Shown: piece after piece, positions 10,020 through 63,927 of the stretch
Position numbering within the stretch: the first letter of the stretch is position 1
How the letters are laid out: each line of letters starts with the position of its first letter
Virus record (IMG/VR): IMGVR_UViG_3300037483_001670
Location: 1 to 64,000 of that record
Length of the DNA stretch: 64,000 nucleotides
Source of the DNA: a virus
Direction: 5' to 3' (one strand)
Notes under the pieces: generated by a model
Seen by the model: only the letters and a program-made list of their open reading frames with translations
Databases searched by the model: none
Told to the model about the DNA's origin: nothing
Position numbers and translations under genes: made by a program

Positions 10020-10025
10020 CGGTGG

Positions 10026-10106
10026 CTCCAAAGTCTCCCACGAATTGCTCCGACTTCCTCCAGCTCCCAATCCGTTCCAGACGCGCCCATCCTCCAGCTT
10101 CCACGC
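10026..10106 (-). repeat. Three orphan degenerate units of the CRISPR repeat
   Basis: Minus strand reads GCGTGGAAGCTGGAGG, GTCTGGAACGGATTGGGAGCTGGAGG and GTCGGAGCAATTCGTGGGAGACTTTGGAG; array repeat is GTCGGAACG...GTGGGAGTTGGAGG. Confidence 0.7.
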
Positions 10107-50979: not shown

Positions 50980-51010
50980 TTGCACTAGTACGATCGTACT
51001 AGTACGATTC
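50980..51010 (+). promoter_or_regulatory. Sigma70-like promoter overlapped by a 20-bp perfect palindrome
   Basis: TTGCAC-N17-TACGAT; ACTAGTACGATCGTACTAGT at 50984..51003; upstream of 51036..51722. Confidence 0.8.
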
Positions 51011-51035
51011 TAACCTCAAGCGGCGGAGATCAAAC

Positions 51036-55273: not shown

Positions 55274-57265
55274 ATGCGAGAAGAATATCGGTCCAAGAAA
55301 TTCACGACGGAGTCGCTCGATCGTATCGGGCAGTGCAACGAGATCATCGACGACTACGCGGCGCAAGGTCTGCGGCTGACCTTGCGGCAGCTCTTCTACC
55401 AGCTCGTCTCGCGGGCGCTTCTCTCGAACGAGCAGCGGAGCTACAAGAATTTGTCGACGCTCGTTAGCGACGCCCGGCTGGCGGGCCTGATGGACTGGGA
55501 TGCCATCGAGGACCGCGGAAGGCAACCGCGGGCCGCGTCGGAGTTCAAAGACCTGGCCGAGCTCGCCGAGGCGGCGATTCAGAGCTACCGCCTGCCTCGC
55601 TGGCACAACCAGGACTCCTATGCGGAATTGTGGTGTTTTCCACCAACGACGCTGGTTACCACGCCGGATGGCGTTGCGCCCATTGCGGCACTCGAAGTCG
55701 GAGATCTGGTCATCGACGCTCAGGGCGTTGCTCGACGGGTGCGCAGCCTGTTTCGGCGCCGCTATGTTGGTCGCTTGGTCGAGGTGCGAGCGCGGGGGCT
55801 ATTGCCATTTTGTCTTACGCCGAACCACCCGGTACGGGTGGAGCAGTGGACCGGGACAGGAGTGGGCAGCTCTCGTGGTTATTCGCCGCGCGAATTTGTG
55901 CGAGCCGATCGTTTGCGGAAGCATGATCTTGTCATCGTGCCACGCGTCGGTCTGGTGCGTGACCGGCGGACGCTGCGCATGGCTGGAGGACCAAGGACGG
56001 TCAATACACCAACGGTGAAGGTCGATAGCGCGTTCTGCTCCGTAGCTGGGCTGTATCTGGCCGAAGGCAGTGTGCGCGGCGATGGGCGGACTTTGCAGTT
56101 CACGTTTCATCGGAAAGAAACGGCGTACGCCGAGGTGGTCAAGGCCTGGGCCACCGTTGCCGGATTTAAGTGGAGCGAAGCTTTCGGCGCAGGGACAAGA
56201 ATCGTGTACGTCTTCGGTAAAGCTGCGGCCAAGTTCTTCGGAGACGCTTTCGGCTCTGGGTCGTGGAACAAGCGGTTCCCGTTGTGGGCGATGACGCTGC
56301 CGCACGCCAAACAGATGAAAATGTTGGAATACTATTTTCGTGGCGATGGCTCGCTCTGGGACGTTAGTCGTTCAGCATTGTCCGTGGGTACCCGTAGTGA
56401 AACATTGGCAAGGCAGGTGCAACTCGTATTGATGCGATGCGGCCACGCTGCGTCGCTCTGCGTTGTTCAAGATCATGGGCAACCGTTTTTTCGCGTGACG
56501 ATCGGCGGTGTCAACGCGGCTGCGGTTGGCAAAAAATGGAGCCTACCTTTGCCAGTTCGTAAGTACAGATTCTCGCACATGAAAGTGCGTGTCGACGGCG
56601 TGGCGTGTCCGATTGGTACCCTTCGTGAGGTGCCGTACGAAGGGGACGTCTACAATATCGAGGTCGAGAAGACGAACTCCTATTGTGTTCCGTGTGCCGT
56701 GCATAACTGTGAAAAAGACGCTCTGGCCGGCATCTTGTGGCCGCTCGCACGTCAGTTTCACGTGTCCCTGCAAGTGAATAAGGGTTACTCGTCCCAATCG
56801 GCAATGTACGAGGCGGCCGCCCGCTTTAAGGCGAAGGAGTACTACGAGAACACGTCGACCGAGCCTGCGCATTCCGTTCAGCGCCGACTCGTGCTGCTCT
56901 ACCTCGGCGACCACGACCCGTCCGGCGAGGACATGGTGCGCGACATCCGGGAGCGGCTCAGCATGTTCGGGGTCGAGGTCGACGTGCGCAAGATCGCACT
57001 GACGATTCGGCAGGTGCGTCAGTACAACCCGCCGCCGAACCCCGCCAAGATTACGGACCCGCGCGCGGTCGATTACATCCGCAAGCACGGCGAGAAGTCG
57101 TGGGAGGTCGACGCGCTGCCGCCCGAGGTGCTGTCGCAGTTGATCCGCGCGGCGTTCGCCGAGCTTGTCGACGAGAGCGAGCTCCGGCGGGTGCTCAAGC
57201 TGGAGGAGCGTGACAAGAAGCGACTACGCAAGGCCGTCGAGAAGCTCACGGATCAGGCCAAATGA
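55274..57265 (+). CDS. Toprim-domain protein (Topo VI-A/DUF2399-like) interrupted by an intein
   Basis: LTLRQLFYQLV, YKNLSTLVSDARLAG, W|C-EKDAL, NKGYSS, YLGDHDPSGEDM, WEVDALPP. Confidence 0.85.
   Translation: MREEYRSKKFTTESLDRIGQCNEIIDDYAAQGLRLTLRQLFYQLVSRALLSNEQRSYKNLSTLVSDARLAGLMDWDAIEDRGRQPRAASEFKDLAELAEAAIQSYRLPRWHNQDSYAELWCFPPTTLVTTPDGVAPIAALEVGDLVIDAQGVARRVRSLFRRRYVGRLVEVRARGLLPFCLTPNHPVRVEQWTGTGVGSSRGYSPREFVRADRLRKHDLVIVPRVGLVRDRRTLRMAGGPRTVNTPTVKVDSAFCSVAGLYLAEGSVRGDGRTLQFTFHRKETAYAEVVKAWATVAGFKWSEAFGAGTRIVYVFGKAAAKFFGDAFGSGSWNKRFPLWAMTLPHAKQMKMLEYYFRGDGSLWDVSRSALSVGTRSETLARQVQLVLMRCGHAASLCVVQDHGQPFFRVTIGGVNAAAVGKKWSLPLPVRKYRFSHMKVRVDGVACPIGTLREVPYEGDVYNIEVEKTNSYCVPCAVHNCEKDALAGILWPLARQFHVSLQVNKGYSSQSAMYEAAARFKAKEYYENTSTEPAHSVQRRLVLLYLGDHDPSGEDMVRDIRERLSMFGVEVDVRKIALTIRQVRQYNPPPNPAKITDPRAVDYIRKHGEKSWEVDALPPEVLSQLIRAAFAELVDESELRRVLKLEERDKKRLRKAVEKLTDQAK
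55634..56707 (+). mobile_element. Intein (358 aa) with LAGLIDADG homing endonuclease
   Basis: Starts CFPPTTLVTT and ends VYNIEVEKTNSYCVPCAVHN before +1 Cys; GLYLAEGS and EYYFRGDGS motifs; visibly more AT-rich codons. Confidence 0.92.
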
Positions 57266-57350: not shown

Positions 57351-57641
57351 ATGAAAACGAAGAAGAAGGCGGCCAAGCTCAAGCGTCATCGGTTGACGAC
57401 GGCTCTCGATCGCCACGAGCTTCGCCAGTTCAAGAAAGTCGCGAAGTTCGTGCGGGGGCACTGCGGTCCGGTCTCGGACGCCGAGGTGCTCCGCTACCTC
57501 GTGCGGAATTGGAGCGAGTCGTCCACGACGACCTGGTTTGTCGACACGGTGAACGGCAACGACACGAACGACGGACTCACCTCGAAGACGCCGCTCCGCA
57601 CGCCAGGGGAGCTGCGGCGGCGCATGGGAGTGGACCGGTGA
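57351..57641 (+). CDS. RHH-like protein fused to a WFVDTVNGNDTNDG motif
   Basis: GGAGG RBS; see findings. Confidence 0.6.
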   Translation: MKTKKKAAKLKRHRLTTALDRHELRQFKKVAKFVRGHCGPVSDAEVLRYLVRNWSESSTTTWFVDTVNGNDTNDGLTSKTPLRTPGELRRRMGVDR

Positions 57642-58861: not shown

Positions 58862-59168
58862 GATGCCGAAGCTTCCGTACGTCGCGCCGAAACTGCGCGA
58901 GCTCGACCTGCACGAAGAAATCGCGAAGCAGATAAGCCGTGAGCTCCATGGACCGGACTCCGGTCGGTGGACGAGTGAACGGCCAGGCGATGCAGCGGTG
59001 CAGCATCTGAAGCACTACATCGAAGGCTACCGCTCTCGCATCTTCGGCCTCAGCGACTGCCCCTACTCGCCGGGCAGCGCGCGCGGTCTCTCGTGGCTGC
59101 GTGGGTGGACGATCGCCGGCATCGATTTGCCGAGGCCGAACGCCGCGACGGGGTAAGCTTGCAGCCGC

Positions 59169-59194
59169 TAGTACGAACGTGATAGTACGATCGT
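59169..59194. promoter_or_regulatory. Tandem 14-bp operator-like boxes
   Basis: TAGTACGAACGTGA TAGTACGATCGT upstream of 59199..59612. Confidence 0.75.
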
Positions 59195-59198
59195 CACG

Positions 59199-59612
59199 AT
59201 GACGTTCGACCCCGCGGTGCACTTCCAGATCGCCGACGACCCGCGCAAGGTGGCGCTCCTCTTGGACCCGGTCGCGACCGATCCGAAACCGACAACGATT
59301 GCGGAGCTGCTCGAGTTCGGGGAAGACACGATCGTCGTGGGCACGCATTTCTCCGACGACATCTTTCGCACCACGTTCGATCGGTTTACCGGGCTCGCGC
59401 TCGACAATGGGCGACTGAAGACCAACACGATTCCGCCGAAGGAGCTCGCTCGCCTCGAGCGCTTTGCGGCCGAAGGGGCGTACAAGACGAGGCCAGCCGA
59501 GTGGGGCCAAGTGACTCCGGCAGCAGCGACACCGGCCCAGGTCCCGGTTCACGCGTCTGCTCCTGCTCCGGTGGCAGCCGAGGCAGCGTTCGATCCCGAT
59601 GCGTTCCTGTGA
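59199..59612 (+). CDS. Hypothetical protein
   Basis: ORF directly after the operator motif. Confidence 0.65.
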   Translation: MTFDPAVHFQIADDPRKVALLLDPVATDPKPTTIAELLEFGEDTIVVGTHFSDDIFRTTFDRFTGLALDNGRLKTNTIPPKELARLERFAAEGAYKTRPAEWGQVTPAAATPAQVPVHASAPAPVAAEAAFDPDAFL

Positions 59613-60034
59613 GTGAGAGCGGGGAGGCGCTCGCGGTAGCGTTCGAGCCGCCACCGGCCGATGGGCCACCGCTTGCGTCGACCGCTCTGGTCTGCGATCA
59701 CTGCGGTGCGCCTTGCAACATGGCCGAGTACGTGACCGAGCACGTGACGCGCGTCGTGGACGGGTGGGCGGCGCCCGGCGGCCTCGGACCGGAGAAGCTG
59801 ACGCGCAAGGAGCTCCTGGTCACGCATCTTTTGCTGCGAGGCTACATGGTCGACGAGCTCGCGACCGTGTTGGGTAACACGACGAAAACGGTGAAGTGCC
59901 ACATCACGTCGATCTATCGGAAGCTCGGCATTCAGGCTCGCCATGAGCTCTTCGCGCGAGTCTTCGGGTTCGACGACATGCCGATGCCGGAGAGCGCGTG
60001 GCAGAACCAAAACCCGCGCTGTCCGCAGGTCTGA
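59609..60034 (+). CDS. LuxR/NarL-type HTH regulator with N-terminal CxxC
   Basis: LTRKELLVTHLLLRGY..ELATVLGNTTKTVKCHITSIYRKLGI. Confidence 0.85.
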   Translation: MSESGEALAVAFEPPPADGPPLASTALVCDHCGAPCNMAEYVTEHVTRVVDGWAAPGGLGPEKLTRKELLVTHLLLRGYMVDELATVLGNTTKTVKCHITSIYRKLGIQARHELFARVFGFDDMPMPESAWQNQNPRCPQV

Positions 60035-60053
60035 TCGAAAACTTGCCGTGCAA

Positions 60054-60081
60054 GTTACGATCGTGCTAGTACGATCGTAAC
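60054..60081. promoter_or_regulatory. Operator-like inverted/tandem motif at the promoter of the type V locus
   Basis: GTTACGATCGT-GCTAGT-ACGATCGTAAC; TACGAT -10-like hexamer. Confidence 0.75.
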
Positions 60082-60082
60082 G

Positions 60083-60380
60083 ATGTCAAATCGTCGAACA
60101 GCGGTAGCAAGGTCCGCGTCTCTGCCGTACGGGTCGACTCCACGACCCTTAGGCGACGAAGCTGGGGAACATGACGGCCCTCGGGCCGAGGAAGCAAGCT
60201 CGCCAGCGCTCGCTATAAAGTCGCACGTTGGTGCATCTGTCCCAACCTTCCCCCTCGTGATTGATTCGAAAGAACTGATCGTCGGTCTTGGGGACAACCG
60301 TGGCCAGGTGCTCGAGGGCCCCACGCTCTCGAATCAACCAACAAGTGACACTCCCACGCACCCTCCCGCAAGGGAGGAGG
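60083..60380 (+). ncRNA. Candidate tracrRNA-like structured RNA overlapping the atypical 5' part of the effector ORF
   Basis: Hairpins GGGTCG-ACTCCA-CGACCC, GGCCC-TC-GGGCC and CCTCCC-GCAA-GGGAGG; ACTCCCACGCA is complementary to repeat TGCAGTGGGAGT with one bulge. Confidence 0.45.
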
Positions 60381-61873
60381 GCGGAGATGCGGACCTTGCT
60401 GCTGCTGTTCCGGGCGCCGAGCCGGCGCCTGAGTTTCGGGTCACGCGCAACACGACGCGGTTCGAGATCGATCTGCGCGCGATGTCCGATCGTCTCAACG
60501 CGAAGCGAGAGAAGGGCCAGAAGCGCGTCATGGGGCCCGAAGAGAAGGAGCTCCGCGGTGCGCTCGAGAACGTGGCGCGGCTTGCGACGACGGCGCGCAA
60601 CGTGGCGATGCGCGCGAACGAGCGACGGGACGCCGAGGCGCTCGATCGCTACTTGCTCGAGCATGGGGCGATGCCGCGGAAGATGGCCGGCATCTTTGCC
60701 CCGGTCCGGAAGTCGGGCGTCGACACCGGCGGGCACGAGGTTTACTCCTACCCGCTGATGCGCCGGGCGTGCCCCGAGCTCTCGACCAACATGGTGGCCA
60801 CGCTCCAGAAGGACGTGGACGGCAAGTGGGTGCAGGAGCGCTACGACGTGCTCGTGCGGCAGACGCGCAGCCGGCCGCACTTCAAGATGGGGCAGCCGTT
60901 CCCGATCCCGGCGGCCTCGCTCAATCTCAAGGCGGCGGGCGATTCCCTGCTCTTGTCGATGGCGTTCTACTCGCAGTCGCACGAGGGGACTCGTCGGTTC
61001 ACGGTGCCGATGCGTCCGCGGGACGACCACCAGACGAACATCCTGGCGCGCATCGCGTCGGGCGAGTGGAAGCACGGCCAGGCCGTCTTCGAGCAGGACC
61101 GACTCCGTCCGTGGAAATGGTACGTGCGGCTCGCGTACAAGCGGCTCATCCCGAAGGCCCGGCAAGGGATCGCGGCCGGCATCAACCGCGGCTGCCGGGC
61201 GATGATCGCGGCGTGGACCGAGACCGGCGAGGCGTGGATCTACGACGGCCAGGACATCGAGGCCTACCTGAAGCAGATGCAGGCGAGGCGTCGTCGGTTC
61301 CAGAACGCGTCGAAGGCGTCGGGCCGGCACGGCCATGGTCGAGCTCGCATGCTCCGGCCGACGGAGGCGCTCGAGGGCAAGGCGCAGCGCTACCGGCAGA
61401 CGCGCTGCCAGGTCATCGCCCGCCGCCTCGCGCGCTGGCTTTTCGAGCGGCACGTCAACATCGTCTACATCGAGGACTTCGGCGGCATCCGCGACGGCTT
61501 GCCCGAGAACCTCGAAGGCGGCAAGTACGTTTGGGACCGCATCCAGGAGTGGCCGTATTCCCAGCTCCAGATGCGTCTCGTGGCGTGTCTCGAGGAGCTC
61601 GGCATCGAGGCCACGTCGGTCAGCGCGTCGTACATTTCGCAGACGTGTCCCGCGTGCGGACACACCGCGGAAGCGAACCGCGATTGGAAGTTCTGGCGGT
61701 TCAAGTGTACCGCGCCGGGCTGCAAGTATCGGCGGCACCTCGACGTGGCGGCCGCGCAAAACGTTTGCGCGAGAGGCAAGGCAACGACGGCGGAAGGGGT
61801 CAGCGAAAACGCGGCGTTGCCGAACGGCCCGAAGGGCTCGAAGCGAACCGCTCGCAAACCTAGGCGTAAGTAG
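60083..61873 (+). CDS. cas12: Compact TnpB/Cas12f-like type V effector with RuvC-I D-to-N substitution; true start uncertain, core about 480 aa
   Basis: AAGINRG (RuvC-I), VYIEDF (RuvC-II), SQTCPACGH..FKCTAPGC zinc finger, HLDVAAAQNV (RuvC-III); stop codon 28 bp before the array. Confidence 0.88.
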   Translation: MSNRRTAVARSASLPYGSTPRPLGDEAGEHDGPRAEEASSPALAIKSHVGASVPTFPLVIDSKELIVGLGDNRGQVLEGPTLSNQPTSDTPTHPPAREEGGDADLAAAVPGAEPAPEFRVTRNTTRFEIDLRAMSDRLNAKREKGQKRVMGPEEKELRGALENVARLATTARNVAMRANERRDAEALDRYLLEHGAMPRKMAGIFAPVRKSGVDTGGHEVYSYPLMRRACPELSTNMVATLQKDVDGKWVQERYDVLVRQTRSRPHFKMGQPFPIPAASLNLKAAGDSLLLSMAFYSQSHEGTRRFTVPMRPRDDHQTNILARIASGEWKHGQAVFEQDRLRPWKWYVRLAYKRLIPKARQGIAAGINRGCRAMIAAWTETGEAWIYDGQDIEAYLKQMQARRRRFQNASKASGRHGHGRARMLRPTEALEGKAQRYRQTRCQVIARRLARWLFERHVNIVYIEDFGGIRDGLPENLEGGKYVWDRIQEWPYSQLQMRLVACLEELGIEATSVSASYISQTCPACGHTAEANRDWKFWRFKCTAPGCKYRRHLDVAAAQNVCARGKATTAEGVSENAALPNGPKGSKRTARKPRRK

Positions 61874-61901
61874 TGGAAAGTGTTGCTGTGCGGAACGAGC
61901 C

Positions 61902-62824
61902 GTCGGAACGAGTGAAGAATGCAGTGGGAGTTGGAGGAGCATCATCCAAAGCGCCAAGATCGATTGGGCCGATCTGTCGGAACGAGTGAAGAATGCAGTG
62001 GGAGTTGGAGGTTAATCCGCACTTACGCCCGTCGACGACCGATGGGCCGCGTCGGAACGAGTGAAGAATGCAGTGGGAGTTGGAGGTTGGAAGTCGGCGC
62101 TCTTCACGTCGATTCCAGCGGTAGGTCGGAACGAGTGAAGAATGCAGTGGGAGTTGGAGGAACCACCCCAACGACGACGTCGACTTTTCGATCAAGGTCG
62201 GAACGAGTGAAGAATGCAGTGGGAGTTGGAGGGTGCACGCGGTCTCGAAACATATGAATCGCACTTCGGCGGTCGGAACGAGTGAAGAATGCAGTGGGAG
62301 TTGGAGGGCGTCCCGATACGTCACCACGATCGAACTCTGCGCCGTCGGAACGAGTGAAGAATGCAGTGGGAGTTGGAGGAACATAGCGACGCGCGCAAAC
62401 TACGGTTGCATGCTCGCGTGTCGGAACGAGTGAAGAATGCAGTGGGAGTTGGAGGCAGATCCAGCAGTCGAAGACTAAGACACCTGTTGAGATGGTCGGA
62501 ACGAGTGAAGAATGCAGTGGGAGTTGGAGGGACGTTGCTCGGGGCTGCTCTCGACGCACAGGGCGTCGGAACGAGTGAAGAATGCAGTGGGAGTTGGAGG
62601 CCGGTGATGCGTGAGCGGCCGCTCGGCTCGTGCGAGGTCGGAACGAGTGAAGAATGCAGTGGGAGTTGGAGGCGTATGAGAGAAATACAACCGCACCGCG
62701 CCAAACCCAGGTTCGTCGGAACGAGTGAAGAATGCAGTGGGAGTTGGAGGTTGGCACGGGGCTTATCGTCGTCCGACGCTTCGCGGCGGTCGGAACGAGT
62801 GAAGAATGCAGTGGGAGTTGGAGG
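61902..62824 (+). CRISPR. CRISPR array: 13 identical 36-bp repeats GTCGGAACGAGTGAAGAATGCAGTGGGAGTTGGAGG and 12 unique spacers of 34-42 bp
   Basis: Repeats start at 61902, 61976, 62051, 62125, 62197, 62272, 62344, 62420, 62495, 62565, 62637, 62715 and 62789. Orientation inferred from decay at the distal end. Confidence 0.98.
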
Positions 62825-62864: not shown

Positions 62865-63191
62865 GTCGGAGCGAAGCGCAGTGGAAGTTTGGAGGAACGC
62901 TGGTAACCATCTCGCTGTTGTTACCAACTTTGCCGGAGCGAGCGCAAAAACGCAGTGGAAGTTGGAGGATGGGCTGCCTGCCGTGAGCTGATTAGCTGGC
63001 CCGCGGGCCCGGAACGAGTGAAGAATGCAGTGGGAGTTGGAGGCGGCAGCATTCACCCTATTGACGACGTGAGTGCCCGACGGAAATGAGCGAAGATGTT
63101 GTGGGAGTTTGGAGGTCCGGTTCGATACGTGTCGTTCGATGGAGCTGGAGGTCAAACGGAGGTCGCGAAAAGAGGCAGTGGGAGTTGGAGG
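62865..63191 (+). CRISPR. Degenerate trailer of the array, about 6 units
   Basis: Decayed repeats at 62865..62895 and 62932..62968, near-perfect at 63008..63043, remnants ending 63115, 63151 and 63191. Confidence 0.85.
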
Positions 63192-63222: not shown

Positions 63223-63642
63223 ATGAAAAAGTCAACCAAGAGACGTGAAGCGCGGCCGTCGCGCGTGGAGCTGATCGACGTCGTGCGCGAACTGCTCCTG
63301 GGCGTGCGCCTCACGCGTCAGACGGTCATGCGCATGGGCGTGTCGTCAGCAACCGCGGACCGCTGGCTCGAGATTATCCTCAGCAAGATCCCGCGGGTCG
63401 TGAAGATGCGCAGCGGCAACACGTCGGCGTACGAGTGGCGTGGGCACCTGGTCGTTCCGAAGCCGACGGAGTTTCATGTGGATCCCGAGAACGGGAGCGA
63501 CGACAACTCAGGCACGAGCATCGCGCCGTTCAAGACGTTCGCGAAGTTGAACAGCGTGCTTCGGCAGGGCCCAATGGTGTACCCAGGCGGGCTGACGATC
63601 AACCTGCCGAGCGTCAACGTATCGAAGCGGAAGCGTCGGTAG
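63223..63642 (+). CDS. Winged-HTH-like protein between two decayed repeat tracts
   Basis: LTRQTVMRMGVSSATADRWLEII followed by beta-wing-like VVKMRSGNTSAYEW. Confidence 0.6.
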   Translation: MKKSTKRREARPSRVELIDVVRELLLGVRLTRQTVMRMGVSSATADRWLEIILSKIPRVVKMRSGNTSAYEWRGHLVVPKPTEFHVDPENGSDDNSGTSIAPFKTFAKLNSVLRQGPMVYPGGLTINLPSVNVSKRKRR

Positions 63643-63660: not shown

Positions 63661-63927
63661 GCGTGGGAGTTTTGGAGGCGCATGATGGCGAACCCGTAGC
63701 AGTTGCGTCGGCTGTGAAGAATGGAAGCGTGGAAGCTGGAGGTCGGGACTTTCTCGAGGGTTTGGGAGTTGGAGGCATGTAGTCGTCGATTACCGCGTGG
63801 GAAGTTGGAGGCATATACTCTCGCGTGCCGGCGGGAGCGGAGGAACCGTGGACCATTGGTGGTTCCGCCAGGGTGCGTGAAGCTGGAGGCAATGAGGTCG
63901 AAATCGGAAGGCTGGGAGCCATGGAGG
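63661..63927 (+). repeat. Second cluster of about 6 degenerate CRISPR-repeat units
   Basis: E.g. GTCGGCTGTGAAGAATGGAAGCGTGGAAGCTGGAGG (63707..63742), TGGGAGTTGGAGG (63763..63775), GCGTGGGAAGTTGGAGG (63795..63811). Confidence 0.8.

Follow-up and report, generated by a model that had tools for sequence, protein, structure and literature searches.

The window, a stretch of 64,000 nucleotides, formed the start of a virus record of 182,423 nt (65% G+C), the ends of which overlapped by ~130 nt. The effector was present as a single copy in the whole record. The listing of reading frames and repeats bore out the original prediction that this TnpB/Cas12f-like ORF ended 28 bp before an array of 13 repeats with 12 distinct spacers. 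The absence of cas1, cas2 and cas4, which had been stated for the window, held for the entire record, in which no match to Cas1, Cas2 or Cas4 was found. The predicted extent of the array was revised in part: the 13 repeats stood, but the array did not end with them, as five degenerate repeats followed and units with a minimal handle were found at 63663-64231. The features are collected in Table 1.

Table 1. Features of the effector locus and of the remote guide clusters; positions refer to the window unless marked as genome positions
Feature	Position	Strand	Remarks
Minimal-guide cluster, remote, three units	10025..10104	-	found by the handle search
LuxR/GerE HTH gene	59720..60034	+	Pfam GerE; not conserved with the effector
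Promoter-like motif	60067..60078	+	~15 genomic copies; this one 4 nt upstream of the effector ATG
Cas12f1-like effector, RuvC-I Asp to Asn	60083..61873	+	596 aa; folded core from ~60434
Putative tracrRNA in the 5' coding region	60096..60410	+	closed by a 31-bp helix (60096-60126 with 60380-60410)
Predicted tracrRNA hairpin, short anti-repeat, pseudoknot-type	60131..60148	+	loop pairs with repeat positions 31-35
Predicted long anti-repeat	60350..60360	+	pairs with repeat positions 19-30
AAC codon of Asn368	61184..61186	+	aligns with SpCas12f1 Asp228
CRISPR array	61902..62824	+	13 identical 36-nt repeats, 12 distinct spacers of 34-42 nt
Degenerate array tail	62866..63191	+	five decayed repeats, 3' handle retained
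Winged-HTH-like gene between guide clusters	63223..63642	+	structure look-alikes, TM 0.6-0.7; not conserved with the effector
Minimal-guide cluster	63663..63927	+	13-16-nt handle, ~20-33 nt between handles
Minimal-guide cluster	genome 64128-64231	+	outside the window
Minimal-guide cluster	genome 116701-116771	-	outside the window

The promoter-like motif was also located 4-5 nt ahead of the ATG in the genes at 59199, 131554 and 127877, and its closeness to the effector ATG suggested a leaderless effector transcript. The motif was a 12-nt near-palindrome, often doubled, which occurred at 50986-51011, 59169-59194 and 60053-60078 of the window and at ~10 more sites of the genome, in intergenic gaps as well as 4-5 nt upstream of several ATGs. 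It probably serves the virus as a promoter of leaderless mRNAs or else as the site of a regulator. Elsewhere in the window, an intein-bearing gene with Hint and LAGLIDADG domains was found at 55274-57265, and a small gene at 58863-59156 carried an Rmf/CrpP-like motif scoring just under the NCBIfam cut-off. Terminase_6N had no match in the whole genome, a 364-aa candidate structural protein had no relative among GenBank phages, and the search for a host via PyrF and GroES reached no named cellular relative.

By the agreement of a search of solved structures, profile comparisons and a confident structure model, the effector was confirmed as a relative of Cas12f1 (V-U3 group). It matched the PADLOC Cas12u3 profile (E 1.7e-44), reached 99.9% in hhalign against SpCas12f1 and was below the NCBIfam cut-off for TnpB (77.5 vs 100 bits); no match to the Cas12u1 profile was obtained. 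The model (pLDDT 91) retained the whole Cas12f1 fold and was superimposed on AsCas12f1 with Z 26.8 and rmsd 5.5 over 399 aligned residues. In profile and sequence alignments, Asn368 was placed opposite the RuvC-I Asp of AsCas12f1, OsCas12f and SpCas12f1 (497 aa). Glu464, Asp554 and the C4 zinc finger were kept, just as had been claimed for RuvC-II, RuvC-III and the zinc finger alongside the RuvC-I Asn. The mutations D228A in SpCas12f1 and D225A in AsCas12f1, at the position equivalent to Asn368, are standard dead mutants (PMC8548392). The effector protein, including the Asn, was letter-for-letter identical in two Logan assemblies of public runs (SRR12684493 and SRR12684511), hence an error of the present assembly was unlikely. 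In the same contigs the gap between the effector and the winged-HTH gene was 244 bp, compared with 1350 bp here, which corresponded either to an array collapsed in assembly or to a short-array variant.

Further, the residue was followed through the homologues of the effector, which were separated from further homologues by a clear score gap. The RuvC-I Asp was kept in none of the 149 family proteins, the query included (N 107, H 18, T 10, R 6, other 5, gap 3); as several loci were near-duplicates, this and the other counts given here overstate independence. Among the next-best matches outside the family, Asp was found in 38 of 47. The non-Asp proteins formed one branch, apart from the D-E-D proteins, in a midpoint-rooted FastTree phylogeny (support 0.93-0.99). 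A recent pseudogenising mutation, which the original prediction had left as a possible refutation, was therefore rejected. RuvC-II was partly relaxed (acidic in 85% vs 100%) and was also lost in some members. The RuvC-III Asp was acidic in 99% of the family, and the family had gained conserved Arg/Lys residues, one of them adjoining the lost RuvC-I Asp, as well as two specific glutamates after RuvC-II, E475 and E489, which were acidic in 86-87% of the family vs 5-15% outside. Together with the tree, these observations indicated that the loss of the Asp was old and that the protein was under continuing selection.

No family member was detected in 185,579 species genomes searched with one peptide pattern. 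The contexts seen were virus-like and included a 105-kb viral genome with terminal repeats, and the family appears to be confined to viruses. A deeper-branching Asn-E-D group was also observed (proteins P0165, P0178, P0180, P0187 and P0195); its one seen locus (L046) was a tight phage operon in which the tracr model found nothing significant.

Two features of the family were counted against reading the protein as a DNA binder, namely the nearly invariant RuvC-III acid and the strong, non-random preference for Asn at RuvC-I. The kept RuvC-III acid and the two glutamates leave room for a rearranged active site, in which E475/E489 or coordination by Asn/His would support nicking, slow cleavage or guide processing, so that the protein would serve as a phage nuclease against competitors. 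The conservation of E464, D465 and D554, the active maintenance of the array and the argument of Altae-Tran et al. that conserved rearrangements often retain activity (PMC10691335) agree with it. However, the rearrangements that they describe affect RuvC-II and RuvC-III, and in the present family RuvC-I tolerated His, Thr, Arg, Cys, Ser and Gln, with RuvC-II lost in some members too. Moreover, many of the guides described below look too short for cleavage. A rearranged, active site was considered unlikely, and a protein that binds DNA was preferred.

The first ~330 nt of the effector frame (~115 codons) were covered by the putative tracrRNA, and all in-frame start candidates of the effector were located before or inside it. 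The first 350 nt of the ORF folded far above shuffled sequences (z -8.3), and the coding scores there were low. The hairpin loop formed five of five Watson-Crick pairs with its repeat positions in 14 of 14 loci, which represented four loop/repeat variants, and the anti-repeat matched 8.9 nt of the cognate repeat vs 4.5 nt of foreign repeats. Two-sided changes were recorded for 17 of the 24 predicted pairs in the alignment of related loci, where kinship inflates such counts. The pairing of the long anti-repeat was estimated at -17.8 kcal/mol, compared with -7.6 kcal/mol for shuffles; it was computed without the closing helix, because co-folding with the helix bars the pairing by construction. 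A naive duplex scan using the whole repeat was uninformative. The predicted RNA of the effector locus would thus form both the long and the short repeat:anti-repeat pairing known for Cas12f1 (PMC11246509).

A helix of 25-35 bp enclosed the tracrRNA in 21 of 22 loci. The distance between the hairpin and the protein core varied, though in 19 of 25 loci no stop codon interrupted the frame joining them and its phase was the same; it was open in another phase in two and interrupted in four. In one locus the tracrRNA was detached and lay 1.3-1.4 kb upstream of the ORF. No match to the tracrRNA was found in Rfam. A branched insertion of ~130 nt occupied positions 60218-60349 of the window, where relatives had a short hairpin, and the frame was still kept. 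A strong ribosome-binding-like site with an out-of-frame ATG (60373-60389) fell within the closing helix. In Virus Rctr197k (KX853510), which encodes a sister non-Asp protein, a homologous RNA (E 2e-4) was located between the gene and the array. Its presence in the usual place suggests, without proving it, that the loss of the Asp preceded the relocation of the RNA.

The perfect repeats of the array were located near the gene and decayed outward with the 3' handle kept, and the gene-proximal end is likely the end of acquisition. The minimal guides consisted of a handle of ~14 nt, corresponding to no more of the repeat than its tracr-pairing 3' half, and a short guide. When handles were predicted from the tracrRNA of each locus, 30 were found in this genome vs 1.8 in shuffles, and up to 65 vs 0.4 in one relative. 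Loci that seemingly had no array also revealed guides, nearly all on one strand; three such loci, for instance, had 41, 30 and 15 units, compared with ~1 in shuffled sequences. At least two handles were present in 20 of 22 related loci, and the other two loci ended less than 300 nt past the stop codon. The spacing of the handles was bimodal, at ~25-45 nt (79 gaps) and at 70-79 nt.

The full-length spacers scored as coding-like (1.33, compared with 0.27 for shuffled sequences and 2.38 for coding DNA) and were drawn from both strands, with 71 in sense and 55 in antisense orientation. Their codon phase was biased at the 5' end (p=8e-5), whereas the 3' end showed no such bias (p 0.79). The analysis was post hoc, pooled the lineages and assumed the codon usage of this virus. 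The best-fitting candidate 5' motifs were AAG, ATC, TTC and AAC. The phase bias fits a PAM-dependent acquisition from double-stranded DNA and confirms the orientation of the array. The matching of spacers to targets, which had been proposed as a check, yielded none for this array among GenBank phages or PLSDB plasmids, and the arrays of two relatives likewise gave no target. Exact and codon-degenerate spacer patterns found no target in viral contigs, and ~340 guides cross-matched to all DNA collected in the study remained near the control level. Two 18-nt matches of spacer 1 did not extend and were at chance level.

The first 16 nt of spacer 3 matched the virus's own genome at 159249-159264 on the minus strand, when none of 342 foreign guides gave a self-genome match of at least 15 nt. 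This match would fit a locus that mainly regulates the virus's own genes. It was the only one in 30 units, its 5' flank was outside the best-fitting PAMs, and a second whole virus had no self-match above 12 nt. The minimal guides were rarely common to close relatives, which is compatible with self-regulation and also with short units that are functionless decayed repeats. Against decay, the short units kept exactly the tracr-pairing half of the repeat, on one strand and with the regular spacing of 25-45 nt. Both explanations were regarded as very improbable.

The gene flanking the effector upstream was a LuxR-type HTH gene, as predicted, by its Pfam GerE match. The winged-HTH assignment of the downstream neighbour stood on structural look-alikes, whereas no Pfam HTH match was found for it; one of the look-alikes was the WYL proteins of Myxococcota, a weak lead to the host. 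This gene and another small gene shared a similar C-terminal motif of a short beta-helix type (at 63470-63620 and 57530-57610, respectively), which in the winged-HTH gene gave a weak Pel9A-like match. The suggestion that these flanks belong to the system was not sustained, with no homologue of either gene near the effector in 28 related loci.

In those 28 loci no neighbour family was present in more than four lineages, and the annotated neighbours included neither a transposase nor a sigma factor. These results weigh against a dead effector that recruits a partner such as an integrase, a sigma factor or a nuclease, in the manner of Cas12k and dCas12f-sigmaE, instead of acting as a lone roadblock. 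No tnsB, tnsC or tniQ was seen among the neighbours of the effector, and no ECF sigma factor gene was found in the window or the annotated loci. Such recruitment has a precedent (PMC13472631), and two candidates were noted. In four lineages a viral protein of ~320 aa was encoded no more than ~3 kb from the effector, and it was also found near the Rctr197k loci, including the sister system. In this genome the corresponding 324-aa gene (78425-79399; L030 14426-15400), with no Pfam or confident Atlas match, was 16.5 kb away. A ParB-like gene was near the effector in three lineages. Recruitment of a partner was judged improbable, slightly more so than a rearranged active site. Virus Rctr197k itself (L045, KX853510.1 110803-121176) contained two type V loci within 10 kb. 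The first encoded a 622-aa Cas12m-like protein that kept the RuvC-I Asp and had a long array; the second encoded the sister non-Asp Cas12f1 (His), annotated only as transposase-like, with a tracrRNA and four repeats.

It was proposed that the virus-restricted branch of Cas12f1 binds DNA under RNA guidance and so stands in the way of transcription or replication, with a probability of about 0.66. The loss of a key cutting residue, together with the tracrRNA, the array and the short guides, most likely means that the virus blocks genes by binding rather than cutting; the viral Cas12f1 system would then most likely be a natural CRISPRi. Both the absence of cutting and the silencing of genes are what we infer from the sequences. 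A single transcript would be either translated or processed into the tracrRNA, which a cut at the long flanking helix could plausibly free. The tracrRNA would pair with the repeat handles of the array and the minimal guides, and the complex would find PAM-flanked double-stranded targets on either strand, where it would hinder transcription or replication while leaving the DNA uncut. The array probably gains its new spacers at the gene-proximal end through Cas1-Cas2 of the host, and older array units probably decay into minimal guides. The targets may be competing mobile elements or host genes. A more specific version is tentative and rather doubtful as a whole. In it a single transcript would serve a dead Cas12f1 as mRNA and also as tracrRNA, and dozens of minimal guides dispersed between genes would form a multiplexed, fast-evolving programme that silences genes of the host or competitors. 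If true, the production of the scaffold would consume the message and couple the supply of protein to that of RNA.

If the proposal is correct, the family would comprise more than 140 naturally non-cutting CRISPR effectors of ~480 aa, apparently confined to viruses, and would make it possible to test directly whether, as has long been proposed, phages employ CRISPR for silencing and not for cutting. The placement of a tracrRNA within the 5' part of a coding sequence is unusual and raises a testable idea of self-regulation, and the natural 14-nt handles, spaced at 25-45 nt, point to a very compact way of building multiplexed CRISPRi. Minimal guides are overlooked by standard array finders, and filters that require the D-E-D triad discard the proteins of this family.

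The original prediction held that the locus fits none of the known arrangements. Its virus-borne Cas12f1 origin stood, but the arrangement was less unprecedented than stated (PMC7162821, PMC13472631). The embedded tracrRNA, the dispersed minimal guides and the coding-like spacers with a 5' phase bias went beyond that prediction. A dead Cas14 in a phage has already been proposed in print (PMC7162821), and the overlap of a scaffold with a gene is known at the 3' end from Cas12n. A literature search covering largely openly readable papers found no description of the family, of a tracrRNA embedded in 5' coding sequence or of scattered minimal guides.

The closest relatives were the type V-F Cas12f1 proteins (AsCas12f1, SpCas12f1 and OsCas12f1), which gave the best sequence, profile and structure matches and share the C4 zinc finger, the tracrRNA with long and short pairings (PMC11246509) and the array downstream of the gene. 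Unlike them, the family lost the RuvC-I Asp, so the D-E-D triad is not intact, and was found in virus-like contigs with dispersed minimal guides. The tracrRNA of Cas12f1 is usually located between the gene and the array (PMC8548392), where only 28 bp are available here. The sigmaE-linked dCas12f and the CRISPR-linked Bacteroidota cluster (PMC13472631) are naturally dead Cas12f derivatives, as the present effector would be, with short guides, their 14-16-nt guides resembling the minimal units, and repression was proposed for the CRISPR-linked cluster. [quoted passage not shown] By structure alignment the effector was closer to AsCas12f1 than to dCas12f (22% vs 17%).

Cas12m (V-M) has an inactivated RuvC, silences by binding, as proposed here, and occurs on plasmids and prophages without adaptation genes (PMC11656645), but it is a separate lineage (Z ~14 with the effector model, vs 26 for Cas12f1). 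TldR and TnpB have a single 3' guide RNA and no array, in contrast to the array and separate tracrRNA found here. Cas12m is not known to use a tracrRNA. The phage 'dCas14' of Al-Shayeb et al. 2020 (PMC7162821) is a phage-borne small type V effector that misses one catalytic residue and was proposed as a repressor; it was one case, from an AT-rich phage, and the signature peptide of the present family was absent from 200 supplementary files, the Cas14 list included. Cas12n (V-N) and TnpB also have a guide scaffold that shares sequence with the effector gene (bioRxiv 10.64898/2026.03.27.714800), but there the overlap involves the 3' end of the gene and the enzymes cut, whereas in the present locus it involves the 5' end, where a long helix directly behind the start codon encloses the RNA. 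Viral crRNA-like RNAs and Cracr arrays (bioRxiv 10.1101/2024.10.29.618823) are similarly compact, multiplexed viral guides for silencing, yet Cracr arrays hijack Cas proteins of the host, while the handles described here vary in step with the tracrRNA and effector of the virus itself. V-U24 (Altae-Tran 2023) has a non-canonical RuvC-I and an HTH gene, and V-U24, V-U43 and V-U44, unvalidated groups described in that source (PMC10691335), could be the same proteins as this family. On this comparison, the locus would act like Cas12m, TldR and the CRISPR-linked dCas12f but descends from Cas12f1, while departing from each of them in its defining features.
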